From an uncultured Bacilli bacterium (GTDB taxonomy: Bacteria; Bacillota_I; Bacilli_A; RF39; UBA660): 64,000 nucleotides of DNA. How positions within the stretch are numbered: the first letter of the stretch is position 1; every line of letters begins with the position of its first letter. The stretch spans positions 43,784-107,783 of the forward strand of contig CAKOLK010000002.1 of assembly GCA_934096275.1 (NCBI GenBank), given 5' to 3'. The position numbers and the translations under genes were made by a program. Positions 1 to 60,292 of the stretch are shown one piece after another. The notes below the pieces were generated by a model. The model was not told where the DNA came from, did not search any database, and saw nothing but the letters and a program-made list of their open reading frames with translations.

Positions 1-2028
1 AAAAATTTTGATGAAACTCTAGATGAGCCTGTTGTTTTACCTAGTAGATTTCCTAATATTTTAGTTAATGGGACTATGGGTATTGCTGTTGGTATGGCTA
101 CTAATATACCACCACATAATTTAGGTGAGGTTATTGATGGTTGTGTTGCTTATATTGATAATCCTGATATTGATACTTTAGGTTTAATGCAACATATAAA
201 GGGTCCCGATTTTCCTACTGGAGGAATTATTCTTGGTAATTCAGGTATTATGAGGGCTTATCAAACTGGTAAAGGTACAATTACTATTAGAAGTAAGGCA
301 GAAATAGTTGAAAATGGTAATCATTCTAGTATAGTTGTTACTGAAGTTCCATATGGTGTTAATACCATGGATTTAAAAAATAGAGTTGCTGAGCTTGTCA
401 GGGATAAGGTTATTGAAGGTATTTCTGATTATCATACTGATTTAAAGAATGGTGTTAAGATTACTATTACCTTAAAGAGAGATGCAAATCCTCAAGTTGT
501 ACTTAACAATTTATACAAACATACTAATTTTCAAATTAGCTATGGTATAACTTTGTTGATGATTGATGGAAAGACTCCTAGAACATTAGGATTAAAGGAT
601 ATTATATCTAAATATATAGATCATCAAATGGAAGTTATTATAAGAAGAACTAAGTTTGATTTAGAAAAAGATGAAAAACGTGTTCATATTTTAGAAGGTT
701 ATAAAATTGCACAAGATAATATTGATGAAGTTATTAAGATTATTAAAGCTGCTAAGAGTGATGTTGAAGCAAAAGAAAAATTAATGGATCGATTTGGTCT
801 TACTGATGTGCAAACTGATGCTATTTTAGAATTGAAATTACGTCGTTTAACTGGATTAGAACGTGAAAAGATTGAAGCTGAATTGCAAGCATTATTACTT
901 GAAATTGAGGAATTAAAATCTATTTTAGCTAGTAATGAAAAGGTTCTTGCAATTATCAAGAAGGAAATGTTAGAAATTAAGGCTAGATTTGCAGATGAAA
1001 GAAGAACTTCAATTGATATGACTGCTATTGATTATATTGAGGATGAATCGTTAATACCTGTTGAAAACATTATGATTTCTCTTACAGAAAAAGGTTATAT
1101 TAAGAGATTGTTAACAAGTACATACAGATCACAAAATCGTGGTGGTGTTGGTATTAAAGGTATGTCTACTAATGAAGAAGATTTTGTTAGTAAGTTAGTT
1201 ACATGTTCTACACATGATCATATATTATTTTTTACTAATTTTGGTAAAGTATATAGGATAAAAGGTTATGAAATACCTGAATCTAGTAGACAATCTAAGG
1301 GATTACCTATTGTTAATTTATTACCTTTGGAAAAAGGTGAAATTGTTAACTCAATTATTCCAATTAATCCTAATGATGTTGATGATAGTAAGAGTTTGAT
1401 ATTCTTTACTATGGGTGGTCTTGTTAAGAGAACTCCAATAAGTGAGTTTGAATCTATTAGAAAGAATGGTAAAATTGCTATTACTCTTAAGGAAGATGAT
1501 GAGTTGATTAGTGTTAAAATGACGTCTGGTAATGATGAAGTTATTATGGCTTCTAATAGTGGAAGAATGGTTCGTTTTGTGGAAACTGAGGTTCGTATGA
1601 TGGGTCGTAGTGCTTCTGGTGTTAAGGGTATTGATTTAACTGATTCTAAGGTAATTGGAGCAGAAATTGTAAATCCTAATGAATATATTTTAGTGGTAAC
1701 AGAAAATGGTTATGGTAAGAAAACCGATGTTGGTGAATATAGACTTACTCATCGTGGTAGTAAGGGCGTAAAAGCGCTTAATATTACTGATAAAAATGGT
1801 TTAATTATTGCATTTAAATCTGTTATTGGGGACGAAGATTTAATTATTACAACAAATAATGGTATTGTTATTAGACTTGATGTTTCTAAGATTTCTACTT
1901 TGAAGAGAAATACGCAAGGTGTTAGATTGATGAGTCTTAAAGATGGTCAGGTTGTTACTTCTGTTACTGTAACTGAAAAGGTTGACGAAGATTTAGAAAA
2001 TACCGAATCTAAAGAAAATGATGCTTAG
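1..2028 (+). CDS. gyrA: DNA gyrase subunit A, 5'-truncated by the window edge
   Basis: Frame 1 is open from base 1. Translation contains [11 protein letters not shown] and the repeated C-terminal beta-pinwheel blades. Stop TAG at 2026-2028. Confidence 0.97.
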
Positions 2029-2118
2029 GCATTATTTTTTTTATTATTTACAAAACAAATGTTTGTTATTCGCAATTTTATAGTTTTTTGTAAATTGTTA
2101 ATAAGTGTTATTTTTCAA

Positions 2119-2134
2119 TGTTTCACGTGAAACT
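2119..2134. promoter_or_regulatory. parS (ParB/Spo0J binding site), one terminal mismatch
   Basis: TGTTTCACGTGAAACT versus the B. subtilis parS consensus TGTTNCACGTGAAACA. Intergenic. Confidence 0.7.
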
Positions 2135-2331
2135 TTATGTCAATATGTTATTAAATTTTAAATAGAATTATTTTAAGTTTGATTTATTTTGTTTATATTA
2201 ACTTAATTAATTATATTTTTATTTTGCTTTTTACATAAGTTATATATTAGTTTATAGTATTTGTTTTTTAATATGTATAGTTACAATCTTAAAACTTTTA
2301 ATTTAAAATTGTTAATAAATATTTTTTTCAA

Positions 2332-2347
2332 TGTTTCACGTGAAACA
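2332..2347. promoter_or_regulatory. parS, perfect palindrome
   Basis: TGTTTCACGTGAAACA. The palindrome extends to caatg...cattg and abuts the -35 of the SRP RNA promoter. Confidence 0.8.
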
Positions 2348-2351
2348 TTGA

Positions 2352-2378
2352 TTGACTATTTTGATTTTTTGTTATAAT
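2352..2378 (+). promoter_or_regulatory. Putative sigma-A promoter of the SRP RNA
   Basis: TTGACT (2352-2357) and an extended -10, tgtTATAAT (2370-2378). The 15-nt spacer is short. Confidence 0.5.
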
Positions 2379-2384
2379 ATATAT

Positions 2385-2462
2385 TTGTGCAACGCATATG
2401 ATTGAATTAGGTCAGGATCGGAAGATAGCAGCCTTAAAGTCCTCTGTGTGTGTGCACTTTTT
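2385..2462 (+). ncRNA. ffs: Small (4.5S-type) signal recognition particle RNA
   Basis: Contains the conserved SRP domain IV sequence aGGTCAGGatCGGAAGatAGCAGCC with a GGAA tetraloop. The 5' gtgca (2387-2391) pairs with the 3' tgcac (2453-2457). A T-run follows at 2458-2465. Ends are approximate. Confidence 0.8.
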
Positions 2463-2475
2463 TTTGGAGGTTTTT

Positions 2476-2916
2476 ATGTCATTAAAGAATGATAAGTATT
2501 ACTTTAATTTAGCATTGAAGGAAGCGAAAAGGGCAACAAAATCAAATAATGTTCCGATTGGTTGTGTTATTGTTTTTAATAACAGAGTGATTGCTAAAGC
2601 ATATAATAAAAAGAATAGTAAGAACGTTTCAATTTATCATGCTGAGATATTGGCAATGATAAAAGCATGTAGATTTTTAAATACATTTATTTTAGAAGAT
2701 TGTACTATGTATGTAACTTTAGAACCTTGTAAAATGTGTATGAATGCCATAGCTGAATCACGTATTAGAAATGTTAAGTATTTGATTTTTTCTAGATATG
2801 GAAATAATTTAAAAAGCAATTATGATCGTATTAAATGTAACCAATATTCTAATAATGAATATATAGATGAATATAGTGATATGTTATCACAATTTTTTAA
2901 GAATGTAAGAAGTTAA
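2476..2916 (+). CDS. tadA: tRNA-specific adenosine deaminase
   Basis: Has the CDA-fold motifs HAE (YHAEILAM) and PCxxC (LEPCKMC). GGAGG at 2466-2470 precedes ATG 2476. The track ORF start at 2398 would run through the SRP RNA. Confidence 0.9.
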   Translation: MSLKNDKYYFNLALKEAKRATKSNNVPIGCVIVFNNRVIAKAYNKKNSKNVSIYHAEILAMIKACRFLNTFILEDCTMYVTLEPCKMCMNAIAESRIRNVKYLIFSRYGNNLKSNYDRIKCNQYSNNEYIDEYSDMLSQFFKNVRS

Positions 2917-2919
2917 CAA

Positions 2920-2935
2920 TGTTTCACGTGAAACA
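2920..2935. promoter_or_regulatory. parS, perfect palindrome
   Basis: TGTTTCACGTGAAACA, starting 4 nt after the tadA stop codon. Confidence 0.8.
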
Positions 2936-3052
2936 TTAAATAATATTACTATTTATGTTAACTAATATTAATATTCTATGACTTTTACTGTTCATATCTT
3001 TTGATTTGAATTATTAAACTATTTATTTTAAATATAAAATAGTCTTTAAATT

Positions 3053-3066
3053 ATTTCCCGGGAAAT
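3053..3066. promoter_or_regulatory. Noc-binding-site-like palindrome (NBS)
   Basis: ATTTCCCGGGAAAT is identical to the B. subtilis Noc binding consensus. It lies within the 24-nt perfect palindrome aaattatttcccgggaaataattt (3048-3071). Confidence 0.6.
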
Positions 3067-3116
3067 AATTTTGAATAATATGATATTTTTATATTGTTAA
3101 TAACTGTTTTTTTCAA

Positions 3117-3132
3117 TGTTTCACGTGAAACA
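3117..3132. promoter_or_regulatory. parS, perfect palindrome
   Basis: TGTTTCACGTGAAACA at the right end of the 85-bp repeat, copy A. Confidence 0.8.
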
Positions 3133-3257
3133 TAATTTAGTTATTAACATTTTTTGGTTAATAACTTATATATTTTATAAGTTTTGATTGCTATGGTTGA
3201 TTAATTTAATCAATTGATTACAAGAATAGATTATTAAATTATTTGTTTTAAATCCAA

Positions 3258-3273
3258 TGTTTCACGTGAAACA
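3258..3273. promoter_or_regulatory. parS, perfect palindrome with extended arms
   Basis: TGTTTCACGTGAAACA lies inside the 32-nt palindrome aaatccaatgtttcacgtgaaacattggattt (3250-3281). Confidence 0.8.
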
Positions 3274-3380
3274 TTGGATTTAACTTATTAATGAATATTA
3301 TATATTATATGTATTTAATTTTATTTTTTCTTATATGTTTAAAAAAAATATATTATGAATACAAAAATCATCAATAAATT

Positions 3381-3394
3381 ATTTCCCGGGAAAT
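3381..3394. promoter_or_regulatory. Noc-binding-site-like palindrome (NBS)
   Basis: Second identical ATTTCCCGGGAAAT, within the same 24-nt palindrome (3376-3399). Confidence 0.6.
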
Positions 3395-3444
3395 AATTTT
3401 GAATAATATGATATTTTTATATTGTTAATAACTGTTTTTTTCAA

Positions 3445-3460
3445 TGTTTCACGTGAAACA
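3445..3460. promoter_or_regulatory. parS, perfect palindrome
   Basis: TGTTTCACGTGAAACA at the right end of the 85-bp repeat, copy B. Confidence 0.8.
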
Positions 3461-3552
3461 TTGATAACAAAGCTGAAATAATTTTGATATGTCATAGACT
3501 TTATTGCACTAATTTGATACAATATTTGTAGTACTTTTTTGGGGGTGATATT

Positions 3553-5184
3553 ATTACTTATTTAGCTTTATATAGAAAATATAGACCAACTTCTTTTGAA
3601 GAGGTTGCAGGTCAAAGTTCTATTGTGAAAATACTTAAAAATTCTATTGCTAATGGTTGTGTTTCTCATGCTTATTTATTTGCGGGACCTCGAGGAACTG
3701 GCAAGACAAGTTTAGCAAAAATTATCGCTAAAACTATTAATTGTTTTAATTTAAATGGATCTAAATTTTGTAATGAATGTGATAGTTGTGTCTCTTTTAA
3801 TAATAAAAATAATCCTGATATTATTGAAATAGATGCTGCTTCAAATAATGGTGTTGAAGAAATCAGAAAGATTAGAGATAGTGTTAATTTAATGCCTAGT
3901 ATTTCAAAATATAAGGTTTATATTATTGATGAAGTACATATGTTATCTAGTGGAGCTTTTAATGCATTATTAAAAACTCTTGAAGAACCGCCAGCTCATG
4001 TTATTTTTATATTAGCGACTACAGAGTTTTATAAGATTCCAGAAACAATTATATCTAGATGTCAGTGTTTTAATTTTGAACGTATTTCAAATAATGAAAT
4101 TGTTAATAAATTACAATATATTGTTGAATGTGAAAATATTAATATTGATTATAATGTTTTGAATTTGATTGCAAAGTATAGTGATGGAGGTTTAAGAGAT
4201 TCAATTAGTATGCTGGATAAATTAGTTTCTTATTCTAATGAAATCACCGTTGATGATTATTACACTTTGAAGGGTATTGTTAATGATGAATGTCTGGTGT
4301 CGCTTACTAATTACATTTTTAATTGCGATATTCCTAATATATTGAATCTTTTAGAAGAGTTGGAAAATTCAGGCAAAGATGTTGTTGTTTTATTAGATAG
4401 TTTTATGGAACATCTTAAGTCTCGTTTGATTTCACATGATGCTAATAACTTTGATTCTATTTATAATTTAATTATTGAGTTAAATGACTTGGATATATTG
4501 TTAAAAAAGAGTAGTAATAAGAAAATTATTTTTGAGGTAGGAATTATTAAAATTGTTAATAAATTGTTTAAGAATAAAACAAATGTTTGTAATACACAAG
4601 ATATTAATGATTTTGTTGTTCAAAATAAGAAGGTTGTTTCTAATGAAGAAGATGTTGATGATGTCTCTAAAGAGGTAGTTGAAACTTATAAAATATGTTA
4701 TAATAAAGATGTCAGGATTAATAATGCTTTTGCGTTGGCTGATAAGGGTCTTTTGAATGATTTGAGAATAAAGTGGGTTTTATTTTCTGAATCTGTTTCT
4801 AGTCCTGATGATTCTTTGTTTATTTCTTATTTACTTGATAGTACTTTAAGAGTTGCAGGTAAAAATGAATTGATTTTGTCAGTTAAATATGATTCGATTC
4901 TTAAAAATGTTGATAATAATATTTCTGGTATTGAATTAGTATTTAATAATATTATGAATACTAACTATAAACTTGTTTTTATTAGTGATTCTGATTGGGA
5001 AAATCTAAAAAATGAATATATTAAAAATATTAAAAATGGAATTGTTTATAGTTATATTGATGAAGAAGCAAAAAATAGTGATGATGTTGTTTCTTCAGAT
5101 GATAATATTTCTTTTGATAATAGTAGTGATAGTGATGTTTTAGCTACTTCATTGTTTGGAGAAGATATTGTTGAATTAAAATAG
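3553..5184 (+). CDS. dnaX: DNA polymerase III subunit gamma/tau, apparent ATT start
   Basis: Has the Walker A GPRGTGKTS and the clamp-loader boxes. The conserved N-terminus YLALYRKYRPTSFEEVAGQ is in frame upstream of the first canonical start (GTG 3625). The SD GGGGGTGA lies at 3541-3548. The exact start (3550 or 3553) is uncertain. Confidence 0.9.
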   Translation: MTYLALYRKYRPTSFEEVAGQSSIVKILKNSIANGCVSHAYLFAGPRGTGKTSLAKIIAKTINCFNLNGSKFCNECDSCVSFNNKNNPDIIEIDAASNNGVEEIRKIRDSVNLMPSISKYKVYIIDEVHMLSSGAFNALLKTLEEPPAHVIFILATTEFYKIPETIISRCQCFNFERISNNEIVNKLQYIVECENINIDYNVLNLIAKYSDGGLRDSISMLDKLVSYSNEITVDDYYTLKGIVNDECLVSLTNYIFNCDIPNILNLLEELENSGKDVVVLLDSFMEHLKSRLISHDANNFDSIYNLIIELNDLDILLKKSSNKKIIFEVGIIKIVNKLFKNKTNVCNTQDINDFVVQNKKVVSNEEDVDDVSKEVVETYKICYNKDVRINNAFALADKGLLNDLRIKWVLFSESVSSPDDSLFISYLLDSTLRVAGKNELILSVKYDSILKNVDNNISGIELVFNNIMNTNYKLVFISDSDWENLKNEYIKNIKNGIVYSYIDEEAKNSDDVVSSDDNISFDNSSDSDVLATSLFGEDIVELK

Positions 5185-12394: not shown

Positions 12395-12598
12395 TAGTTA
12401 AATGTGATGAAGAAAAGTTAGGACAATTTTGAAATTGTAGAGAGTTTGTGTTTGGTGAAAACAAATATTTTAAATTGTTTGGTATGATTTTCGGAACAGG
12501 TTTTGCCCGCAGGGATGCGTTAAAAAAATAAGTTTGTAATTTTGCAAAATTAAGGTGGTACCACGGAATATTTCGTCCTTAGAGATATTTCGTTTTTT
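12395..12598 (+). promoter_or_regulatory. T-box riboswitch leader (Met specifier) with intrinsic terminator
   Basis: Stem I elements AGAGAG and GGTGAAA are present. The specifier AUG-A is at 12484-12487. The T-box sequence aaattaAGGTGGTACCACGg is at 12547-12566. The terminator pairs acggaatatttc with gagatatttcgt (12563-12593) and is followed by TTTTTT. Confidence 0.85.
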
Positions 12599-12617
12599 AT
12601 TTATTGGAGGGATGATT

Positions 12618-14147
12618 ATGAAAGAAAAATTTTATATTAGTACTGCGATTGCTTATACTTCTGCTAAACCACATATTGGAAACACATATGAAATTGTTTT
12701 GACAGATGCTATTGCTAGGTATAAGAGGCTTAAAGGATATGATGTTTATTTTCAAACTGGTACAGATGAACATGGTCAAAAAATAGAACAAAAAGCTATG
12801 GAAGCTGGTGTTTCTTGTAAGGAGTATGTTGATAATATTGCTAATGAAATTAAAAAGATTTGGGATGTTATGAATACTAGTTATGATAAGTTTATTAGAA
12901 CTACTGATCCATTGCACGTTGAAAAGGTTCAAAGGATATTTGAAAAGTTATATGATCAAGGTGATATTTATAAAGGAGAGTATAAAGGACTTTATTGTAC
13001 ACCATGTGAATCTTTTTGGACTGAAACTCAATTAGTTGATGGTAAGTGTCCTGATTGTGGTAGAGAAGTGCATGAAACTAGTGAAGAGGCTTATTTTTTT
13101 AGAATGAGTAATTATGCTTCATGGCTTGAAGATTATATTGAAAGTCATCCACATTTTATACAACCTGAATCTAGAAAAAATGAAATGATAAATAATTTTA
13201 TTAAACCAGGTCTTGAAGATTTATGTGTTTCGCGTTCGTCTTTTAAATGGGGAATACCTGTCTCATTTGATGAAGATCATGTTGTTTATGTATGGATTGA
13301 TGCTTTAACTAATTATATTACTTTTCTCGGATATGATCCAGATGGTGATTCAGATGAGATGTTTAATAGATATTGGCCATGCGATGTACATGTAATAGGT
13401 AAGGATATTTTGAGATTCCATACCATTTATTGGCCAATTATATTGAAAGCTCTTGATTTAGAACTTCCTAATAAGATATTTGGTCATCCTTGGATGCTTT
13501 TTGGAAATGATAAAATGAGTAAGAGTAGAGGTAACATCGTTTATGCTGATGATTTAGTAAATGAATTTGGAGTTGATGCTGTTAGATATTATATGCTTCA
13601 TGAGATGCCATTTTCATCAGATGGAACTTTTACTAGAGAGCTTCTTATAGATAGTATTAATTCTAACTTAGCAAATGTTTTAGGCAATTTAGTTAATAGA
13701 ACTATTGGTATGGTCAACAAGTATTTTGATGGTATTGTTGAAAATAAAAATGTAAATGAAGATATTGATAATGATTTAATTAATTTGGTTTTATCTAGTA
13801 GAGATGTAGTTGATGAGAAAATGAATAATTTGCGTGTTGCTGATTCTTTAGATGCTATTTTTGATATTTTTAGAAGATGTAACAAGTATATTGATGAAAC
13901 CATGCCATGGGGTCTTGCTAAAGATGAAAAGTGTTTGAATAGACTATCTACAGTTTTATATAATTTAGTTGAATCAATTAGATTTGGTGCTGTTTTACTT
14001 CAAGCATATATGCCAGATACTAGTGAAAAAATATTTAATCAGTTAAATACAGATATTAAAAATTTTGATAGTTTAGATCAATTTGGTTATTATAAGTCTG
14101 GTACAAAATTGAATGAGTCGTTTGTTTTATTTCAACGAATTGATTAA
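12618..14147 (+). CDS. metG: Methionine--tRNA ligase
   Basis: Has HIGN (class I HIGH), KMSKS and the CPxC zinc knuckles. GGAGG at 12606-12610 precedes ATG 12618. Confidence 0.95.
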   Translation: MKEKFYISTAIAYTSAKPHIGNTYEIVLTDAIARYKRLKGYDVYFQTGTDEHGQKIEQKAMEAGVSCKEYVDNIANEIKKIWDVMNTSYDKFIRTTDPLHVEKVQRIFEKLYDQGDIYKGEYKGLYCTPCESFWTETQLVDGKCPDCGREVHETSEEAYFFRMSNYASWLEDYIESHPHFIQPESRKNEMINNFIKPGLEDLCVSRSSFKWGIPVSFDEDHVVYVWIDALTNYITFLGYDPDGDSDEMFNRYWPCDVHVIGKDILRFHTIYWPIILKALDLELPNKIFGHPWMLFGNDKMSKSRGNIVYADDLVNEFGVDAVRYYMLHEMPFSSDGTFTRELLIDSINSNLANVLGNLVNRTIGMVNKYFDGIVENKNVNEDIDNDLINLVLSSRDVVDEKMNNLRVADSLDAIFDIFRRCNKYIDETMPWGLAKDEKCLNRLSTVLYNLVESIRFGAVLLQAYMPDTSEKIFNQLNTDIKNFDSLDQFGYYKSGTKLNESFVLFQRID

Positions 14148-20827: not shown

Positions 20828-21643
20828 ATGTTGAAAGACTTTAATTTTAAAAAAAAATATGGACAAAATTTTTTAGTTGATAAAAACATTGTTAATAAGA
20901 TAATAAATAATGTGGAATCATTAACTGATTCTTTGGTTATAGAAATAGGCTGTGGTGATGGAAAGTTAACTAATGAGTTATGTAAAAAATTTAATTATGT
21001 TCTTGGATATGAAATTGATTTAGATGTAAAGGATAGACTTATTGCAAATCTTAGCACTTTTAGTAATTATAAGATTATTTTTGATGATTTTTTAAACAGA
21101 AATTTAGTTGATGATATTAGCGATTTGTCTTATTCTAATATATGTGTTATAGCTAATTTACCTTATTATGTTACCACTGCGATTATAGAGAAATTAATTT
21201 TATCTGGTATTAATTTTGAATTTATGAATTTTATGGTTCAAAATGAGGTTGCTGATAGATTTGTTGCTAATGTTGGTACTAAAGAATATAATTCTTTGAC
21301 TGTTTTTTTAAGTTATAAATATGATGTTAAAAAGTTATTTGTTGTTAATAGAAAATGCTTTTATCCTGTTCCTAATGTTGATAGTGCTATAGTTTGTTTT
21401 AAGAAAAAGGAAAATAAATGTAATGTTTTAAATGAGGATCTATTTTTTAGATTGATAAGAGATTCATTTAAGTTCAAACGAAAAACTTTGAAGAATAATC
21501 TCTCTATGTATAATCTTGAAATTGTTTCTGATGTTTTGAAAAAATATAACTTTGATTTAAGTGTTAGGGCTGAACAACTTAGTATAGAAATTTTTTGTGA
21601 TATTGCTAATACTTTGAATATGGAGGTTTCTAATGAAGAATAA
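20828..21643 (+). CDS. rsmA: 16S rRNA (adenine1518/1519-N6)-dimethyltransferase
   Basis: KKKYGQNFLVD, EIGCGDG and NLPYY motifs. GGAGG precedes ATG 20828. Confidence 0.93.
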   Translation: MLKDFNFKKKYGQNFLVDKNIVNKIINNVESLTDSLVIEIGCGDGKLTNELCKKFNYVLGYEIDLDVKDRLIANLSTFSNYKIIFDDFLNRNLVDDISDLSYSNICVIANLPYYVTTAIIEKLILSGINFEFMNFMVQNEVADRFVANVGTKEYNSLTVFLSYKYDVKKLFVVNRKCFYPVPNVDSAIVCFKKKENKCNVLNEDLFFRLIRDSFKFKRKTLKNNLSMYNLEIVSDVLKKYNFDLSVRAEQLSIEIFCDIANTLNMEVSNEE

Positions 21644-22481
21644 TATTAATAGAAGTTGTGTAAAAAAAATAAGGACTAAAACAATATTGTTTAGTGCTTT
21701 GTTTGTTGTTTTTGCTATTGGCCTTATTATTAGTTTGCTTGAAATATTTTTTTGGAATAATGATAACAATAATATTTTAAAGCTTTCTGATGACATAAGC
21801 AGAAACACTGAGGTTAAGATGGTTGATGATAATAAAAATACTGAGGTTATTGAAGATAAAACTATAAAAAATGATAAGAATAATAGTTATTGGCAATTTA
21901 TTAAAATGCCTTTGATTGATGTTGATATTAATGGTCTAATAAAGCAAAACAGTGATACTGTTGGTTGGATTAATGTTAACAATACTAATATTAATTATCC
22001 ATTTGTGCAAACAAAAGATAATAAATATTATTTGACACATGCTTTTGATAAAAGTTGGAATGATGCTGGATGGGTATTTTTAGATTATAGAAATAGTAAA
22101 GATTTTTCTAGTAAAAATAATATTATTTATGGACATTCTAGATTAGATAAGACTATGTTTGGTTCTTTACATAATGTTCTTACTAGTAATTGGTATAATA
22201 ATAAGAATAATCATGTAATTAGATTATCTACTCAAACTGAGAATACAATGTGGCAAATTTTTTCTGTTTATAAAGTTCCCATGGAAACTTACTATCTAAC
22301 TACTGATTTTACTAGTTCTTCTGAGTATTCTGATTTTTTAAAAACTATTAAAGATAGAAGTGTTCATAGCTTTGGTGTTAGTGTTAGTTCTAGTGATAAA
22401 ATTCTTACACTTAGTACTTGTTCTAATAATAATAAACGTGTTGTTGTGCATGCTAAGTTAATTAAAAGAAGTTATAAATAA
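21633..22481 (+). CDS. srtB: Class B sortase
   Basis: N-terminal TM, DNKYYLTHAFD, IIYGHS (His), LTLSTC (Cys) and a downstream Arg. Overlaps the rsmA 3' end by 11 nt. Confidence 0.8.
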   Translation: MKNNINRSCVKKIRTKTILFSALFVVFAIGLIISLLEIFFWNNDNNNILKLSDDISRNTEVKMVDDNKNTEVIEDKTIKNDKNNSYWQFIKMPLIDVDINGLIKQNSDTVGWINVNNTNINYPFVQTKDNKYYLTHAFDKSWNDAGWVFLDYRNSKDFSSKNNIIYGHSRLDKTMFGSLHNVLTSNWYNNKNNHVIRLSTQTENTMWQIFSVYKVPMETYYLTTDFTSSSEYSDFLKTIKDRSVHSFGVSVSSSDKILTLSTCSNNNKRVVVHAKLIKRSYK

Positions 22482-22533: not shown

Positions 22534-23328
22534 ATGCTTTTTAATATTGGTGATTTAGTTACTAGAAAATCACATAATAATGATACTGTGTTTAAGATTG
22601 TTAGTATATCTGATGATGTAGTTATTTTAAAGGGACTTAACATAAGATTAATGGCTGATGCTAATGTTTCAGATTTAGTTCATTGTGAAAATTGTGAAAA
22701 TGATTTGATTTTAGATGATGATAAATTAACTGACAGGATGATTTCTTTTTCTGATTTAGATAGAGATGAGTATTTTTATTTGCCTGGTAAAATTTTACAT
22801 ATTGATGCCGATGATGATTATTTGAAACGATGTATGAATCTTTATAAGAAACTTAATATATTATCGTATGGTGCTGTTGTGGATGAAAGAGATATGCCTA
22901 ATCAGATACTTGAACATTTAAATGAAACTAATCCTGATATACTTGTTATTACTGGACATGATGCATATTATGATAAGGAAAATACTGATATTTTAAATAA
23001 TTCTAATTATAAAAACAGTATTAGTTTTATTAAGACTGTTATGAATGCTAGAAAGTATGAAAACGATCATGAAAAACTTATTATAATAGCGGGTGCTTGT
23101 CAATCTAATTATGAAGAATTGATTAAAGCAGGAGCTAATTTTGCTAGTAGTCCAAAAAGAATAAATATACATGCACTCGATCCTGCGATTATTGCAAGTA
23201 GTGTGAGTTTATCAAATAGAAATAAACCTATAGATTTGTTAGATATTCTGCAAAAGACTAAATATGGCACAGATGGTATTGGTGGTATTATAACAAATGG
23301 TACTATGTATGTGGGGTATCCTAGATGA
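22534..23328 (+). CDS. yabG: Sporulation-specific cysteine peptidase YabG
   Basis: GKILHIDADDDYL..C, VITGHDAY and GACQS motifs. Conserved position before veg. Confidence 0.85.
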   Translation: MLFNIGDLVTRKSHNNDTVFKIVSISDDVVILKGLNIRLMADANVSDLVHCENCENDLILDDDKLTDRMISFSDLDRDEYFYLPGKILHIDADDDYLKRCMNLYKKLNILSYGAVVDERDMPNQILEHLNETNPDILVITGHDAYYDKENTDILNNSNYKNSISFIKTVMNARKYENDHEKLIIIAGACQSNYEELIKAGANFASSPKRINIHALDPAIIASSVSLSNRNKPIDLLDILQKTKYGTDGIGGIITNGTMYVGYPR

Positions 23329-28529: not shown

Positions 28530-30572
28530 ATGAAGAGAATGTTTTTAGTTTTATTATTTTTTATTATTTTTTTAGAGGTTGATGCTGCTTCTTATAATGG
28601 AAAGTTATATGAGGTGCATCATCCTGATTCTGGCTTTACTGTTTTTGCGGATGAAGGTTTAGATCTCATGGATTATAATAGTTGGATAATAAAGTCTAGT
28701 GTTGATAATAGAGTTTATTATTGTATTGAACCAGAAACTAAATTAGATGGTTCTTCAAAAGGGAGTCATTCAATGATAACTGGTGATAAGAATATAATTA
28801 ATAACTCTAAGCTTACTACTAGTAAGTTTGATAAGATTAAACTTATTGCATATTATGGGTATGGATATAAAGACAATAATGTTGATCATACTGCTAAAAA
28901 ATGGTATGGAATTACGCAAGTTATGATATGGAGAATTATGAGGCCTGATCTTACTTGGACTTTTAAATCTAGTAGAAATGCTAGTTCTAATAAAAGTCTT
29001 TATAGTAAGGAAGTTGCTGAGATTAATAAGTTGGTTAAAGAACATTTAGCAAAACCTAGTTTTGTTTCAAAAAAGTATAAAATTAAATTAGGTGAATCTA
29101 TAGATATTAATGATACTAATAAGGTTTTATCTAATTATAATTTAGTTAGTTCTTTGAAAAATATTAAAGTTACAAGAAATGGGAATAAGATTAAAATTAC
29201 TGCGATTAAAATAGGTAGTGATAAATTAACTTATAAAAAGTCTTCAAGAACTACTGAATCTTTTGCTCTTTTTGCTAGTTCTAATTATCAGGATATTATT
29301 TCTGTTGGTAATCCTAGTATTCCTAGTTTTAGTTTTGATGTTGAAGTAACTGGTGGTATTGTTAAATTAAATAAGATTGATTCTTTAAATAATTCTTTTA
29401 AAGCTCAAGGTGATGCTAAGTTAGTTGGTGCAGTTTATGAGGTTTTTGATTCGGATAATAAATCAGTTGGTAAAATTACCATCAATGAGAAAGGATTTGG
29501 GGAGTTACTTTTAGATTATGGAAGTTACAAGATTAAAGAGGTTAAAGCTCCAGTTGGGTATAAAAAAAATGATAAGGTTTATGGTGCTGTTATTGATAAA
29601 GATCATTTGAATATTGATATTGATGTTTCTGATGAGGTTATAAATGGCAAGATTATAATTAAGAAAAAGAAGGGTGGTACTGGTGAGGAGTTAGTTGCAG
29701 AAGGTAATGCATGCTTTGAAATTAAAGATTCTAGTTCTAATTTTGTTTCAGAGATATGTACAAATATAGATGGAGTTGCTTCTGCTACTTTACCATATGG
29801 AAAATATAGTATTTCTCAGATTAGTGGTGCTGATGGTTATAATTTTGTTAAATATTTTAATGTAAATGTTACTGAGGAAAAAGAATATGTTTATGAACTT
29901 GAAAACTTGCGTCCTTCCAAAGTTATATTTACTAAAGTTGATAAGAGTTTAGATTTGAAACTTTCTGATGCTTTTATCGAAGTATATGATTATAATGATA
30001 AGATGGTTTTTAGTGGTAAAACTGATGATGATGGGATGTTAGAATTTGATAATGTTAAGATTGGAAAGTATTATTTGATAGAAAAGGTTGCTCCAAAGTA
30101 TTATAAATTGTCTTTAGATAAGGTTTATTTTGATGTTTTATCAGATGGAAAAGTAATTGATGTTGAAATATCTAACGAGAGGAAAAAAGGCAAATTACTA
30201 TTTATAAAGACTGATGGTAGTGGTCTTAAGAGATTATCTAATGCTTATTTTAAGATATATTTTAAAGATTTTGATAAACTTGTCTATGATGGTAAGACTG
30301 ATAATGATGGTATGATTCGATTAGATAATTTGGATGCTGGTACTTATTGTATTTATGAGTCTCTTGCTCCTTCTGGATATAAACTTGATGATAAACCTAA
30401 TTGTTTTGAAATAAAGGATGAAAATGAAGTTATTAAGATTAATATGACTAATAATATGCTTGTAAAAGTTCCTGATACAGGAGAAGTTTCTTTTTCATTT
30501 ATAGTTAAAGTGTGTTTGATATTTTTTGTTGTTAGTCTTTGTGTGGTGATTTACTATGTTAAAAAGTATTAG
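28530..30572 (+). CDS. Cell-wall-anchored adhesin: thioester (TQXA-type) domain + four SpaA/Cna-B-like repeats + VPDTG sorting signal
   Basis: Has a signal peptide. YYCIEPE (Cys65, nt 28722-28724) and GITQVMIW match the Cys/Gln thioester-domain motifs. Four repeats follow the pattern G..Y.v....APxGYK. The C-terminus has VPDTG, a hydrophobic stretch and KKY. Confidence 0.7.
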   Translation: MKRMFLVLLFFIIFLEVDAASYNGKLYEVHHPDSGFTVFADEGLDLMDYNSWIIKSSVDNRVYYCIEPETKLDGSSKGSHSMITGDKNIINNSKLTTSKFDKIKLIAYYGYGYKDNNVDHTAKKWYGITQVMIWRIMRPDLTWTFKSSRNASSNKSLYSKEVAEINKLVKEHLAKPSFVSKKYKIKLGESIDINDTNKVLSNYNLVSSLKNIKVTRNGNKIKITAIKIGSDKLTYKKSSRTTESFALFASSNYQDIISVGNPSIPSFSFDVEVTGGIVKLNKIDSLNNSFKAQGDAKLVGAVYEVFDSDNKSVGKITINEKGFGELLLDYGSYKIKEVKAPVGYKKNDKVYGAVIDKDHLNIDIDVSDEVINGKIIIKKKKGGTGEELVAEGNACFEIKDSSSNFVSEICTNIDGVASATLPYGKYSISQISGADGYNFVKYFNVNVTEEKEYVYELENLRPSKVIFTKVDKSLDLKLSDAFIEVYDYNDKMVFSGKTDDDGMLEFDNVKIGKYYLIEKVAPKYYKLSLDKVYFDVLSDGKVIDVEISNERKKGKLLFIKTDGSGLKRLSNAYFKIYFKDFDKLVYDGKTDNDGMIRLDNLDAGTYCIYESLAPSGYKLDDKPNCFEIKDENEVIKINMTNNMLVKVPDTGEVSFSFIVKVCLIFFVVSLCVVIYYVKKY

Positions 30573-31140
30573 AGGAGCTTGTATCTCGTTAATATTTTTA
30601 TTCTTATTTCTTGCTTATTCTGAAGTTTTCTTTTATGTTTCTTTTATTTATTATGATGAATCTATTCCTTTGTTTTCTGTTATGGAAGTTGATAGTATTG
30701 ATAAATCTGTATCTTCTTTGGATGAGGCTATTGGAAGAATTGTAATTGATAAGATTAATTTAGATAGAAAGTTTTATTCTTTTGATTCTGATTTAAATGA
30801 TGTGAATAAAAATGTTGCTATAATTTCTCCTTCTGATATGCCTGATGTTATTGGAGGAACTCTTATTCTTGCTGCTCATAGTGGTAATGTTAATACTGCG
30901 TATTTTAAAAGACTTAATGAGCTTGTGATTGGTGATGTTGTAAGTGTTTATTATTCTGATAACAAATATGTTTATAAAGTTTCTTCTTTTTACGAAGAAA
31001 AAAGGAATAGTTCTATAGTTATAAAAAGAGAAAAGATGAAAAATGTTTTGGTACTTACTACTTGTAAAATAGGTACAAAGAAGCAACTTGTTTATATTGC
31101 TAATCTTATTAATAAGTGTAATGTTGATGACAATTGCTAA
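30556..31140 (+). CDS. Sortase (cognate housekeeping/pilin-type transpeptidase for the adjacent adhesin)
   Basis: N-terminal TM, LILAAHSG (His) and VLVLTTC (Cys). Overlaps the adhesin 3' end by 17 nt. I did not see a clear conserved Arg after the Cys. Confidence 0.7.
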   Translation: MLKSIRGACISLIFLFLFLAYSEVFFYVSFIYYDESIPLFSVMEVDSIDKSVSSLDEAIGRIVIDKINLDRKFYSFDSDLNDVNKNVAIISPSDMPDVIGGTLILAAHSGNVNTAYFKRLNELVIGDVVSVYYSDNKYVYKVSSFYEEKRNSSIVIKREKMKNVLVLTTCKIGTKKQLVYIANLINKCNVDDNC

Positions 31141-31550: not shown

Positions 31551-32057
31551 ATGAATAAAGTATGTTTAATTGGTAGATTAACTAGGGACCCTGAATTAAG
31601 ATATACTTCAAGTAATAGAGCGGTTGCATCTTTTACTCTTGCTGTAAATAGACAATTTACTAATCAAAGTGGTGAAAGAGAAGCTGACTTTATACCTGTT
31701 GTTGTTTGGGGTAAACAAGCAGAAAACGTTAAAAATTATATTAATCAAGGAAGTCAAATCGCAGTTGAAGGTAGAATTCAAACAAGATCTTATGACGATC
31801 AAAATGGTCAAAAAAGATATGTTACTGAAGTTGTAGCTGATGCTGTTCATTTTATTGAATCTAGAGCTAGTCGTGAACAAAGAGGTAATGCTCCTGCTCA
31901 AAATAATTATTCACAAAATAATTATCAATCTGCTCCAGTAAATAATGAGGCAACACCATATGATTTTGGTAATAATCAAACTACAAATGTAGTAGATGAT
32001 CCATTCAAAGATTTTGGTGATGAAATTAAAATTGGAGACAATGAATTGCCTTTCTAA
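31551..32057 (+). CDS. ssb: Single-stranded DNA-binding protein
   Basis: OB fold ([19 protein letters not shown]), a Q/N-rich linker and the acidic tail DNELPF. Confidence 0.97.
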
Positions 32058-32071
32058 GAAGGAGGAAAATT

Positions 32072-32287
32072 ATGGCAGAATTTTATAGAAAAAGAAAAAA
32101 AGTTTGTTACATGTGTGCTGGTAAACAAATTAATTATAAAGATGTAGAAATACTTAAAAAATATGTTAATGAAAAAGGTAAGATTTTACCTAGACGTGTA
32201 ACTGGAGCTTGTGCTAAACATCAAAGATATATTGCTGAACAAATTAAAAGAGCTCGTATGATTGCTTTATTACCATTTACAAAATAA
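32072..32287 (+). CDS. rpsR: 30S ribosomal protein S18
   Basis: KKVCYMC...[13 protein letters not shown]...[16 protein letters not shown]. Confidence 0.97.
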
Positions 32288-32310
32288 ACAAGAAATTGTT
32301 TATTTTTTTT
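32282..32310 (+). terminator. Rho-independent terminator after rpsR
   Basis: aaataaaca / tgtttattt stem followed by a T-run. Confidence 0.7.
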
Positions 32311-32367
32311 CTTTGTAAATGACATATGATAAAAAATATAGTATAATAGAGTGGACAAGGAGGAGTT

Positions 32368-33327
32368 ATGGATTTTAAAAGTTTAAAAAAAATTCTAGCT
32401 AAAGAATTGTTTTTATCAAAAAAGATTTTTATTCTTGGACATAACAATATGGATATGGATGCTTTTGCATCAGTTCTTGGTTTTTCTTTAATATGTAAAA
32501 AGTATAAGAAAAAGTTTTATTTAGTTAGTGATGATAAGGAATTTGATTATGGAATAAATAAAGCTCTTGAAAAGATGAAGGGTATTAATTTTATTGATAG
32601 TAATGTTGCTGATGATTTAATTGATGATAAGAGTTTGATTGTTATACTTGATGTTAATAAGAAAAAACTTATTTGTTTAGATAAAATATCTTCTTATTCT
32701 AAAGTTATTATAATAGATCATCATGATACTAATAGTGATACTATTGATACTGATTATTTATATATTGATAAGACTGTTAGTAGTGTTTCTGAAATTGTTT
32801 CTATGTTACTTAGGAAGTTTAGGGTAAAGATACCAAAAATGTATGCAACATTGCTTTTGTCTGGAATTATTTTAGATACTAATGGACTTAGTTATAAACT
32901 TAATCGTAGGACTTTCTTTTATTGTTATTATTTACTTAGTAATAATGCTGATATGAATCAATCTCAAGAGTTGTTAAAGGATGATTTTAATAGTTATTTG
33001 AGAAAGGTTAAATTGATTGAAAAGACTACTATGTATAATGACTTTGCAGTTGTTGTTGATAAGTCTAACGACATATATTCTAGAAAGGATATAGCGATGG
33101 TAGCAGACTCTTTACTTACTTTTCAAGATATTAAGAGTTGTGTAGTTACTGCTAAGATAGATAATGATGTTATTGGAATAAGTGCTAGATCTATTGATAA
33201 GATTGATGTTAATAAATTTATGGCTAATTTTGGTGGTGGTGGCAACAAGAATGAAGGTGCTGCTGTTATTGAAAATGCTGAAATAGATGATATTGAAAAT
33301 AAAATTCTTAAACTTATAAAGAGGTGA
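32368..33327 (+). CDS. Stand-alone DHH/DHHA1 phosphoesterase (NrnA/GdpP catalytic-domain-like)
   Basis: HNNMDMDAFAS, DHHD and GGGGN motifs. It occupies the gdpP (yybT) slot before rplI but has no TM, PAS or GGDEF region. Confidence 0.75.
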   Translation: MDFKSLKKILAKELFLSKKIFILGHNNMDMDAFASVLGFSLICKKYKKKFYLVSDDKEFDYGINKALEKMKGINFIDSNVADDLIDDKSLIVILDVNKKKLICLDKISSYSKVIIIDHHDTNSDTIDTDYLYIDKTVSSVSEIVSMLLRKFRVKIPKMYATLLLSGIILDTNGLSYKLNRRTFFYCYYLLSNNADMNQSQELLKDDFNSYLRKVKLIEKTTMYNDFAVVVDKSNDIYSRKDIAMVADSLLTFQDIKSCVVTAKIDNDVIGISARSIDKIDVNKFMANFGGGGNKNEGAAVIENAEIDDIENKILKLIKR

Positions 33328-33331
33328 GATT

Positions 33332-33766
33332 ATGCAAGTTATATTTATAAAAGATTTAAAGAATCAAGGTAAAAAGGGAGAAATTAAGGAAGTAAAAGAT
33401 GGTTATGCTCAAAACTTTTTAATTAAGAATGGTTATGCTGTTAAAAAGAATGATGTTAATATGAGTATTTTAAATAAACAAAAGAAAGAGGAAAAAGAAC
33501 TTGATGATTATAATAGAAAAATGGCTCTTGATATGAAAAATAAAATTGAAGGTGAAAAAATTTCTTTTGTTGTTAAAACAGGTGAGGGGGATAAGGTTTT
33601 TGGAAGTGTTTCTGCTAAACAAATTAAAGATAAACTTGATAAGTATAATATTTCTAAGAATCAAATTGTTATAGATAGTCCACTTAGTAGTTTGGGTTAT
33701 CATGAAGTTAGAATAGATTTGTATAAAGATATTTTTGCTATTGTAAGAGTTGAATTGAAGAAGTAG
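33332..33766 (+). CDS. rplI: 50S ribosomal protein L9
   Basis: MQVIFIKDLKNQGKKGEIKEVKDGYAQNFLI. Confidence 0.95.
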   Translation: MQVIFIKDLKNQGKKGEIKEVKDGYAQNFLIKNGYAVKKNDVNMSILNKQKKEEKELDDYNRKMALDMKNKIEGEKISFVVKTGEGDKVFGSVSAKQIKDKLDKYNISKNQIVIDSPLSSLGYHEVRIDLYKDIFAIVRVELKK

Positions 33767-33771
33767 GTGAT

Positions 33772-35133
33772 ATGGTGAATAGAGAAATACCACAAAATAT
33801 AGAAGCTGAACAATCTGTTATTGGAGCAATGTTACTTTCTAAGAGTGCAATTGTTGAAGCGATAGAGAGCTTGGTTCCTGAAAGTTTTTATTTAGATAAA
33901 CATGGCAAGCTTTTTAATGCTATTAAGAAGTTATATGATAATGGCATTCCGGTTGATTTTACAACACTTACTAATGAACTAAAAGATCAAGGTTTACTTA
34001 GTGCGGTTGGTGGTGTTGAGTATATAACTGAGATTATGGAACAAACTCCGATTGCTTCGAATGTTTCTTATTATATTAATATTGTTGAGGAAAAGAGTGT
34101 TTTAAGAAGGCTTATTGATAGTGCTACTGACATTGCTTCTTTAGGATATAGTAATGAATATAATTTGGAAGAGACTTTGGATAAAGCTGAAAGTAAGATT
34201 TTGGAAGTTGTAAAAGATAGAAAGGCTACTGATTTTAAGCATATGCCTGAGGTTCTTACTAATGTTCAAACTAATTTGGAAAAGCTTGCTGCTAATAAAG
34301 GAAAGATTAGTGGGCTTTCTTCTGGTTATATTGATATTGATAAGTTGACTGATGGTTTTCATCCAGGAGAGCTTATTATTTTAGCGGCTCGTCCATCAGT
34401 TGGTAAGACTGCTCTTGCTCTTAATATTGCGCAAAATGTTGCAATTAATGATAAGAAGTCTGTTATTATATTTACTCTTGAAATGTTGGCTGAGCAAGTT
34501 GTTCCTCGTATGATTGCATCGGTTGGACAAATTGAGGCTTTTAAATTAAAGAATGGTAATTTAGAAAATAAGGATTGGTCTAGAGTAACTAGTGCTATGG
34601 CTACTCTTGCTGATACGAATATATATATAGCGGATACTACTAATATTACAGTGGGTGACATAAAGGCAAAGTCAAGAAGAGTTAAAGCTCAAGATCCTAA
34701 CTTAGCACTTATTGTTATCGATTATCTTACATTAATTAGTGGAATGAGTAGATATTCTGGGCAAAGGCAACAAGAAGTTTCTGAAATATCGCGTGCTCTT
34801 AAGGCTCTTGCTTTGGAACTTCAAATACCTATTCTTGCTTTGGCTCAGTTGTCTCGTGCGCTTGAGGCTCGTGAAGATAAAAGACCTATACTTAGTGATT
34901 TAAGGGAATCTGGTCAAATAGAACAAGATGCCGATATTGTTGCATTTTTGTATCGTGATGATTATCATAATAAAGAGGTTAGTACTCCAGATAATATTAG
35001 TAAAATAGAAGTTATTTTGCGTAAAAATAGGAATGGTAGTACTGGTACTGCTGAGTTACTTTTTAAGAAGAATACTCAATCTTTTATGAATTATACTAAT
35101 GATATTAAAGAGGTTGGTGATAAGAGTGAATAA
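33772..35133 (+). CDS. dnaB: Replicative DNA helicase (DnaB family; DnaC in B. subtilis nomenclature)
   Basis: PQNIEAEQSVIGAML, Walker A ARPSVGKTA, and the RecA-like C-domain. Confidence 0.96.
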   Translation: MVNREIPQNIEAEQSVIGAMLLSKSAIVEAIESLVPESFYLDKHGKLFNAIKKLYDNGIPVDFTTLTNELKDQGLLSAVGGVEYITEIMEQTPIASNVSYYINIVEEKSVLRRLIDSATDIASLGYSNEYNLEETLDKAESKILEVVKDRKATDFKHMPEVLTNVQTNLEKLAANKGKISGLSSGYIDIDKLTDGFHPGELIILAARPSVGKTALALNIAQNVAINDKKSVIIFTLEMLAEQVVPRMIASVGQIEAFKLKNGNLENKDWSRVTSAMATLADTNIYIADTTNITVGDIKAKSRRVKAQDPNLALIVIDYLTLISGMSRYSGQRQQEVSEISRALKALALELQIPILALAQLSRALEAREDKRPILSDLRESGQIEQDADIVAFLYRDDYHNKEVSTPDNISKIEVILRKNRNGSTGTAELLFKKNTQSFMNYTNDIKEVGDKSE

Positions 35134-60135: not shown

Positions 60136-60174
60136 TATAAAATAGTGTATAATATTATTGAATTTGATTTTTAA

Positions 60175-60268
60175 GTGCCAAAGACAGTAGGTGTTTTAGT
60201 AAATCCTACCGAGGACTTTTATAAAGTATCTGGAGTCTTTGCATATAAAGACTCTTTTATTTAGGCAC
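60175..60268 (+). promoter_or_regulatory. Ribosomal protein L10(L12)4 leader
   Basis: The closing helix gtgcc/ggcac encloses cagtagg...cctaccgagg. An attenuator hairpin gagtcttt/aaagactc is followed by TTTTATTT (60233-60262). Confidence 0.6.
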
Positions 60269-60292
60269 GTAAATATAATAAGGAGGTGTCTT

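Follow-up and report, generated by a model that had tools for sequence, protein, structure and literature searches.

A composite parS/NBS island between gyrA and dnaX

We analyzed a 64,000-nucleotide stretch of DNA, hereafter called the window, from an uncultured Bacilli bacterium of the UBA660 lineage (GenBank assembly GCA_934096275.1, contig CAKOLK010000002.1, positions 43,784 to 107,783). Between the genes gyrA and dnaX, this DNA carries six parS sites, the sequences recognized by ParB (Spo0J), and two Noc-binding sites (NBSs). ParB and Noc, a textbook example of paralogy, recognize DNA sites with two base differences in each half-site. We consider it probable that the tract from 2.03 to 3.55 kb serves as a centromere island close to the origin, onto which two ParB-family cytidine triphosphate (CTP) clamps are loaded side by side. 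By analogy with model organisms, the clamps would bind these sites, slide over ffs, tadA, and dnaX, recruit SMC, and be functionally coupled.

The original prediction, made from the sequence alone, described a compact centromere-like array of six parS sites in noncoding DNA beside gyrA, and its account of the individual sites proved accurate. The 16-mer TGTTTCACGTGAAACA is present without mismatch at 2332, 2920, 3117, 3258, and 3445, and with a single mismatch (last base T) at 2119; recomputed spacings are 213, 588, 197, 141, and 187 bp, as originally given. These six sites correspond to the pan-bacterial parS consensus, a 16-bp palindrome matching TGTTNCACGTGAAACA. There are no further matches to TGTTTCACGTGAAACA with two or fewer mismatches on either strand of the window, and the chance expectation is 0 (no match in 100 dinucleotide-preserving shuffles). 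When a degenerate parS consensus with up to three mismatches is allowed, only one extra match, a poor one at 18780, appears in the window. All six sites are intergenic, with two in the gyrA-ffs tract and four in the tadA-dnaX tract, and the gene context is likewise as first described: the C-terminus of gyrA, ffs encoding signal recognition particle (SRP) RNA, tadA, and dnaX. Four of the six sites share the left arm ATTGTTAATAA ... TTTTTTTCAA. The irregular 141-588 bp spacing, the 16-bp palindromic repeats, and the absence of flanking cas-like open reading frames agree with the initial judgment that the array is not CRISPR-like.

The parS sites of the proposed centromere array are thus confirmed, but the array is not purely parS, because it also includes NBSs and two further conserved blocks. 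The original prediction overlooked two perfect 24-bp copies of the NBS palindrome AAATTATTTCCCGGGAAATAATTT, one spanning 3048-3071 and the other 3376-3399. Their core, ATTTCCCGGGAAAT, is the Noc-binding site core of Bacillus and Staphylococcus (PMC7383237; PMC5540599), and its two matches in the window, compared with 0.1 expected, both fall within the parS island. Each NBS is located 50 nt upstream of a parS site, inside a 98-nt direct repeat (3036-3133 and 3364-3461) whose copies are 96% identical. Because two perfect NBSs reside within these repeats, we regard the tract as a parS/NBS composite rather than a pure parS array. The extended palindrome AAATTATTTCCCGGGAAATAATTT is also present in related loci (L015 and L087-L089 in our numbering).

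When ten units with an NBS, drawn from four genomes in the window's genus, are aligned, they reveal a module of ~125 nt composed of four blocks: block A (TTCnnAAAAATGTnTTGTnAATACAAAAA), the 24-bp NBS palindrome, block B (AATTGTTAATAA), and an 18-bp block (ATGTTTCACGTGAAACAT). The blocks are conserved, the spacers between them are variable in sequence and constant in length, and all modules are co-oriented with the genes. Block B, which is the left arm noted above, begins 23±1 nt upstream of parS. The features of the island and its borders are as follows.

ends 2028, C-terminus of gyrA
2119-2134, parS-1, TGTTTCACGTGAAACT, one mismatch, gyrA-ffs intergenic tract, with block B (ATTGTTAATAA) upstream at 2094-2104
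2332-2347, parS-2, perfect, inside the 22-bp palindrome CAATGTTTCACGTGAAACATTG, with block B at 2308-2318
2352-2378, plus strand, putative ffs promoter deduced from sequence only (TTGACT at 2352-2357, TGtTATAAT at 2370-2378)
2376-2473, plus strand, ffs, small SRP RNA (Rfam RF00169, 57.1 bits, E 7e-10)
2476-2916, plus strand, tadA, tRNA adenosine deaminase, separating the island halves (orthologue domains dCMP_cyt_deam_1/MafB19-deam)
2920-2935, parS-3, perfect
3036-3133, plus strand, composite module copy 1, with NBS at 3048-3071 (core 3053-3066), block B (ATTGTTAATAA) at 3093-3103, and parS-4 at 3117-3132
3258-3273, parS-5, center of a perfect 36-bp palindrome (3248-3283) with site-specific arms TTAAATCCAA and TTGGATTTAA
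3337-3461, plus strand, composite module copy 2, with block A at ~3337-3367 (ending in AAAAAATATATTATGAATACAAAAA), NBS at 3376-3399 (core 3381-3394), block B at 3421-3431, and parS-6 at 3445-3460
3495-3500 and 3518-3523, putative promoter between parS-6 and dnaX (TAGACT and TACAAT)
3553-5184, plus strand, dnaX (start ~3553), gamma/tau subunit, right border of the island, followed by ybaB and recR

An Rfam scan of the tract identified no known RNA besides ffs. An oriC element was ruled out, since 2029-3550 includes no DnaA box with one or fewer mismatches. Block B was also considered in two other roles. As a clade-wide element it was rejected because its pairing with parS is confined to the window's genus (22 of 420 perfect parS sites over all clade loci), and as a promoter it was rejected because no consistent -10 hexamer is found at the right spacing.

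As a separate observation, ATTGTTAATAA is the commonest 11-mer of the whole window, with 12 forward copies (2094, 2308, 3093, 3421, 4099, 4552, 20888, 37850, 38938, 43742, 53461, and 55726) and 2 reverse copies (43834 and 51817). Eight of the forward copies are intragenic, and the two in dnaX are kept in relatives. Either a polar DNA motif or simple I-V-N-K coding could explain this abundance.

The island is locked to one origin-proximal position

The lineage is an uncultured group of the class Bacilli from gut and rumen with ~25-27% GC; for one species, the DnaA sequence is present on 966 contigs. The window has a GC content of 22-32%, its GC skew stays positive from end to end (values of +0.14 to +0.46), and the plus strand carries almost all of its genes. 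This skew, together with the co-directional genes, indicates that the window is leading-strand DNA near an origin. In a set of species-representative genomes, the best matches to the window's DnaX are 35-50% identical and come from uncultured "Bacilli bacterium" metagenome-assembled genomes (MAGs) of gut or rumen. More than 20 of these genomes share the order dnaA-dnaN-comK-recF-gyrB-gyrA-[array]-ffs-tadA-dnaX-ybaB-recR. Judged by this synteny, the array lies ~8 kb right of dnaA, with oriC falling outside the window, which agrees with the origin-proximal placement expected of a centromere. Most relatives carry clusters of perfect parS sites in the gyrA-ffs spacer, such that the array is conserved clade-wide, whereas loci of true Bacillus, Staphylococcus, and Lactobacillus have no perfect parS in the corresponding spacer.

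The positional restriction can be quantified in 68 clade loci, each of which includes gyrA as well as dnaX. In these, the interval from the gyrA stop to the dnaX start (84 kb in total, compared with 745 kb outside) holds 234 of 236 perfect parS sites and 142 of 162 perfect NBSs. Only two parS sites are therefore found in the flanks. The number of parS sites per locus has a median of 3 and a maximum of 8; because 50 of the 68 loci were selected for an NBS-parS pair, these counts, although not the positions, are biased upward. A location-blind scan for NBS-N(22-52)-parS across 241 million metagenome records returned 114 stretches, and 79 of the 80 that were retrieved are at gyrA, tadA, or dnaX of genomes with 22-33% GC.

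Exact-match look-ups with the window's TadA and RecR proteins in one collection gave no hits. A search of a large protein database, in contrast, yielded sequences nearer to the window, whose DnaX proteins are 98% (L204), 83% (L087), 80% (L089), and 77% (L088) identical to its own. These four loci have a long tadA-dnaX spacer like that of the window, with 5-8 perfect parS sites and 2-3 perfect NBSs. The first of the four tadA-dnaX parS sites in the window begins 4 nt downstream of the tadA stop codon (counted from its final base), as the original prediction noted, and its equivalents in L088 and L089 are 8-9 nt past tadA.

Some clade members also carry perfect NBSs dispersed in genes downstream of dnaX (L005 at 11022, 13448, 15199, and 19442; L004 at 3570), with up to four in 10 kb. 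This is a far denser distribution than in model organisms; for Staphylococcus aureus, 41 Noc-bound loci over the whole chromosome have been described (PMC5540599).

Two discrete site classes suggest two readers

Both kinds of site are built on the shared scaffold formed by the abutting half-sites T-N-TTTC-N-C and G-N-GAAA-N-A. Among the occurrences of this scaffold in clade loci, 322 are pure parS, 244 are pure NBS, and only ~10 have other combinations. Moreover, the parS 16-mer and NBS 14-mer cores are invariant over genomes whose DnaX proteins share ~40% identity, while the spacers vary. Because the site classes are discrete, have nearly no hybrids, and are each invariant over this distance, we think it likely that two separate sequence readers are involved.

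ParB orthologues invariably carry R173 and G201 (PMC7383237). The A and the C that set NBS apart are read by Q173 and R201, respectively, and for this reading one Lys, at either 179 or 184, is sufficient (PMC7383237). In a deep mutational scan, every variant that bound parS retained R173 (PMC7383237).

A Noc-type protein is encoded beside oriC in sister species

The other side of oriC was recovered by DnaA anchoring for two species of a sister subclade (L081/L082 and L083-L086). In these species, the order rpmH-rnpA-yidC-jag-(HD)-mnmE-mnmG-rsmG is followed by a single ParB-family gene encoding 537-628 amino acids and then by unrelated genes. The ancestral gidB-noc-soj-spo0J slot therefore holds only a Noc-type gene, after which MurT or FemAB, or uvrB...rplI-dnaB, are found.

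L081:972-2858, minus strand, Noc-type gene (family P0121-P0240)
L083:1236-2849, minus strand, Noc-type gene (family P0121-P0240)

The Noc-type protein has ParB_N and HTH_ParB domains at residues 6-199. Its matches to Noc structures in the PDB score 186-214 bits, compared with 157-172 bits for Spo0J, and the NCBIfam Noc model gives 286-288 bits, which is under the 315-bit cutoff. The specificity residues are Q-K-(N/K/D/E)-R, including Q173 and R201, in 120 of 120 homologues among the best matches listed. We take the C-terminal domain to be like that of B. subtilis Noc. Between the DNA-binding and C-terminal domains there is a disordered and variable linker of ~250-400 amino acids, rich in Pro, Asn, Gln, and acidic residues, in which 119 of 120 members (again among the best matches listed) carry the motif [LI]xPxKFFN[IL]L. 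The KFFN[IL]L portion presumably resembles the N-terminal membrane-targeting sequence of Noc, and it is possible that this motif substitutes for the N-terminal helix. The long Noc-type family has at least 120 members of 295-597 amino acids from uncultured low-GC Bacilli.

Q173, R201, and a single Lys fit the published specificity rules (PMC7383237), which makes the Noc-type protein the likely NBS reader. Given the published mutagenesis of positions 173 and 201, the protein is also predicted not to bind parS. The specific combinations QKNR, QKDR, and QKER are not listed in the supplementary tables of the deep mutational scan. NBS-like half-sites are present at the promoter of the Noc-type gene (TTATTTCCCGAAAT twice in L083:2850-2962 and GGGAAATATTTCCC in L081:2859-2988, minus strand), and this suggests autoregulation. 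We expect that the parS reader is a canonical ParB encoded elsewhere in the genome.

Several observations weigh against an island served by two clamps. Binding of proteins to the parS and NBS sites of this lineage is a prediction made from sequence. The original prediction looked to a ParB homologue in the genome, and a ParB-family gene does lie near oriC in the two sister species, but it is of the Noc type, and no canonical ParB or Soj was found in the origin-proximal sequence covered. Specifically, tblastn searches detected no canonical ParB (R173/G201), Noc, or Soj/ParA in the window, and no ParB, Noc, or Soj within 10 kb on either side of dnaX in relatives, including 80 metagenome loci. 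The soj-spo0J slot is empty in both sister species examined, and the 10 kb that follow the Noc-type gene (uvrB ... whiA, rplI, dnaB) include neither soj nor a second ParB gene. The Noc-type gene has been seen only in the sister subclade, the gidB/dnaA-upstream region of the window's genus being outside the sequence covered. Furthermore, the protein has no N-terminal amphipathic membrane-targeting helix, but rather starts 16-21 residues before RFQPR, and this start codon appears to be real because in-frame stops are present upstream. Since this helix defines Noc, the activity of the Noc-type protein may not be nucleoid occlusion. Interleaved nucleation sites for two clamps could also hinder rather than help sliding, and the selection of loci for NBS-parS pairs, mentioned above, further reduces the weight of the site counts.

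Some of these same findings favor a different explanation, in which soj and spo0J have been lost and parS is read by the Noc-derived protein, through a second binding mode or a mixed complex, or by an unrelated factor. Such a ParB-less centromere would account for a slot that in both species holds only a Noc-type gene, with neither soj nor another ParB gene in the adjoining 10 kb, for the atypical architecture of the protein with its long linker and missing helix, and for the lack of ParB or Soj in ~1.1 Mb of origin-proximal clade sequence. That search covers about -20 to +20 kb of oriC, which is only the origin-proximal part of each genome, and used B. subtilis Spo0J and Soj queries. The Spo0J query evidently works because it matches the ParB genes of the Clostridia loci L046 and L063 (44-46% identity). 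Three other considerations make a ParB-less centromere unlikely in our estimation. Q173 and R201 are present in all 120 listed members, whereas parS binders keep R173 (PMC7383237); the discrete site classes with nearly no hybrids point to two readers; and an empty soj slot is not proof that ParB is absent, because S. aureus retains ParB without ParA (PMC5540599). None of spo0J, soj, parB, and noc is discussed in a paper on reductive evolution in Bacilli or named in the accompanying supplement (PMC10868615).

The arrays turn over while their motif cores persist

In several relatives, the sites are arranged in strict tandem. L001 has 6.7 copies of a 62-nt unit, and L015, from a complete circular MAG of 1.52 Mb, has 5.6 copies of a 126-nt unit, with one parS-type site and one NBS per unit in both cases. 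A 106-nt unit carrying parS only is present in 4.2 copies in L083, and two strains with identical DnaA differ in the number of these units, with five in L083 (18901-19339) and two in L084 (18909-19030). Remodeling is also evident within the window's own species, since the contig L204 carries a full block A-NBS-block B module at the equivalent of window position 3258, where the window has its private 36-bp palindrome. The earlier suggestion that a module was amplified is therefore well founded and can be extended to ongoing recombination between modules. Three contigs (L001, L087, and L204) start within the array, indicating that the arrays probably break assemblies and that copy numbers may be underestimated.

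Many parS sites are also embedded in longer perfect palindromes. Among 65 clade parS sites, the palindrome is extended by at least 3 bp in 55%, at least 5 bp in 37%, and at least 7 bp in 23%, compared with 2.6%, 0.3%, and ~0%, respectively, at random positions. The arms differ from site to site and reach up to 13 extra bp each. These extensions could reflect selection for a hairpin or cruciform, or growth by template switching.

Repetition of modules and variation in their copy number are what would be expected if the sites were a selfish or neutral repeat, such as a miniature inverted-repeat transposable element (MITE), a repetitive extragenic palindrome-like or CRISPR-like element, or palindromes spread by template switching; the palindrome extensions could likewise be a by-product of quasi-palindrome correction, if that mechanism operates here. 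However, there are no copies off the locus in the 64-kb window, and nearly all parS sites of relatives are inside the interval when 745 kb of flanks are included. The 16-mer and 14-mer cores are invariant at ~40% DnaX identity with the spacers free to change, and no terminal repeats, transposase, or cas genes are found nearby. A CRISPR array or MITE was ruled out in particular by the irregular spacing, by confinement to one locus, and by Tandem Repeats Finder, which reported no tandem array in the window and thus no head-to-tail (sopC-like) iteration. We give a selfish or neutral origin very little credence. For an island that loads two clamps, recombination between modules would grow, shrink, and homogenize the array, and selection would hold the motif cores invariant.

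A parS site adjoins the putative ffs promoter

As pointed out originally, parS at 2332-2347 adjoins the putative -35 element of ffs, with 4 nt separating it from the TTGACT hexamer (2352-2357). The same arrangement of parS followed by TTGACT is found in L088 and L092. More broadly, with ffs located by nhmmer, 37 of 65 clade loci show a gap of 27-39 nt from the end of the last parS to ffs, and a -35-like hexamer is positioned 2-13 nt past parS. This recurrence indicates that abutment of parS and the ffs promoter is a conserved arrangement. Occupancy by ParB may be coupled to ffs transcription, or the reverse may hold.

It might be proposed from this arrangement that the palindromes are mainly transcriptional, serving as operators that tune ffs, tadA, and dnaX or as terminator or attenuator hairpins. 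In addition to the placement of parS upstream of the ffs -35 hexamer, and directly past tadA in the window's genus, the site-specific palindromes (37% of sites with an extension of 5 bp or more, versus 0.3% in the null) would suit such a role. One site scores as terminator-like, and Pseudomonas aeruginosa ParB is reported to repress the promoters adjoining parS3 and parS4 (PMC5521831). However, 6-8 exact copies of a pan-bacterial parS far exceed the need of three promoters, and the arrays expand and contract while the promoter layout stays. T-runs precede the stems of the hairpins and A-runs follow them, whereas an intrinsic terminator needs the reverse order, such that terminators were rejected as a general explanation and the terminator-like site is the only one found. 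A primarily transcriptional function is, on balance, quite improbable. A regulatory side effect of ParB at the ffs promoter is compatible with a two-clamp centromere and does not replace it.

Comparison with known ParB-family systems

The island most closely resembles the ParB/Spo0J-parS centromeres of B. subtilis, Caulobacter, Pseudomonas, Corynebacterium, and Streptomyces, which have the same 16-bp consensus and several origin-proximal sites. By this likeness, the expected role is loading of ParB-CTP, spreading, and recruitment of SMC (PMC7333895; PMC7083940; PMC4368675). The density is higher here, with six sites in 1.34 kb of the window and up to eight in ~1.8 kb of L088, and the sites of some relatives are in tandem. 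In addition, the island is entirely intergenic, locked to gyrA-ffs-tadA-dnaX, and interleaved with NBSs, and no parAB operon was found nearby. The parS sites of B. subtilis are dispersed and mostly intragenic.

With regard to the Noc-NBS systems of Bacillus and Staphylococcus, the core ATTTCCCGGGAAAT is identical, and the relatives encode a Noc-type gene after gidB with specificity residues Q, K, and R. In contrast to the single, dispersed NBSs of model species, those of the island are concentrated beside parS and sometimes alternate strictly with it. The relatives' protein also differs, because it is without the N-terminal amphipathic helix and has a disordered linker of 250-400 amino acids carrying ...KFFN[IL]L.

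Plasmid and phage centromeres of the F sopC type consist of packed ParB-family palindromes that act as one, with a copy number that varies by recombination. The multiple, closely packed ParB-family palindromes of variable copy number described here are similar in this respect. Unlike sopC, however, the island is chromosomal, is not arranged head to tail in the window (L001, L015, and L083 are), uses the chromosomal parS consensus, and combines the sites of two paralogous readers.

Finally, the lack of a soj/parA gene beside the ParB-family gene and the small Firmicute genome recall the ParA-less ParB-parS-SMC systems of Streptococcus pneumoniae and S. aureus. Such Firmicutes use only ParB-parS and SMC, with ParA being dispensable (PMC7333895; PMC5540599). 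A canonical ParB gene is known in those species, whereas none was located here in origin-proximal sequence.

Other features of the window and its relatives

The start of dnaX is unusual. At ~3541-3560, the conserved N-terminus (..IITYLALYRKYRP) is encoded without a canonical start codon, and ATT ATT comes after a strong ribosome-binding site, GGGGGTGA. Gene callers choose downstream starts that differ per relative. It is likely that dnaX uses an ATT start.

In each of the clade loci examined, a comK homologue separates dnaN from recF within an otherwise classical dnaA-dnaN-recF-gyrB-gyrA block (for example, L015:704-1171 and L003:2938-3429). In L015, a complete MAG, an insertion sequence-type transposase gene (HTH_38 and rve integrase core domains; 1337-2668, minus strand) is located between comK and recF. 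In the window, ssb, a DHH phosphoesterase gene, rplI, and dnaB lie ~30 kb right of the island (31551-35133). In L085 (17836-20593) and L086, DHH, rplI, and dnaB are left of oriC, beyond the Noc-type gene. The placement of these genes points to rearrangement of the origin flanks between subclades.

Elsewhere in the window are genes for a pilin-like surface protein of the SpaA/thioester-domain type and a neighboring sortase (28530-31140), for a second sortase (21633-22481), for a RhuM-family protein (50772-51803), and for a homologue of the sporulation peptidase YabG (22534-23328). A T-box leader (12398-12583) is upstream of an open reading frame (12555-14147) whose orthologues in L087-L089 have tRNA-synthetase class I domains, and a ribosomal protein L10 leader is found at 60160-60269.

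Proposed function and significance

That parS sites cluster near oriC and that SMC loading depends on ParB are established (PMC7333895). On this basis, the six parS sites of the window would be loading sites for a ParB/Spo0J-type clamp and the two NBSs for a Noc-type clamp. Each parS would nucleate ParB dimers, which would close around DNA upon binding CTP and slide outward. Dense parS sites would give a high loading rate, and thus a robust complex for partition and SMC loading on the DNA that is replicated first. Loading of the Noc-type protein at the adjacent NBSs would place it on this same region of a few kilobases, thereby coupling the centromere to the activity of this protein. That activity might be association with the membrane or division site, perhaps via the linker motif, or control of replication initiation, as has been reported for S. 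aureus Noc (PMC5540599).

A bolder proposal can be made for a lineage without ParA. We speculate that the centromere has taken on a Noc-derived protein that lost the N-terminal membrane helix and acquired a long disordered linker with the conserved KFFN[IL]L motif. The interleaved NBSs and parS sites would then build a mixed ParB/Noc-type body that tethers or positions new origins, for example at the membrane or division site, and thereby replaces ParA-driven segregation. In the extreme version, Spo0J is lost and the Noc-derived protein or a partner reads parS. We hold this proposal to be doubtful, although it merits consideration.

Because origin-proximal parS clusters are well known, the central claim of the original prediction concerns a known kind of feature. 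What appears to be new is the site density, the clade-wide lock on position, the interleaving with NBSs, the four-block module, and the atypical Noc-type protein with an empty soj-spo0J slot. Our literature searches found no report of natural parS/NBS arrays, and in the literature that was found, ParB-parS and Noc-NBS have so far been combined in synthetic uses only (PMC11109969). In the model organisms of the literature consulted, the ParB and Noc sites lie apart on the chromosome. The natural alternation of parS and NBS at distances of 26-67 bp, in modules and tandem arrays, suggests that two CTP-clamp systems can cooperate on the same DNA.

Why parS sites cluster, and what drives this clustering, are listed as open questions in a review of the field (PMC7333895). 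The clade provides a natural series of dense, fast-evolving parS arrays at one locus, whose copy-number variation among strains is suited to the study of centromere expansion. Furthermore, the Noc variant and the empty soj-spo0J slot point to a different organization of origin segregation in a large group of uncultured bacteria that is common in the gut and rumen.

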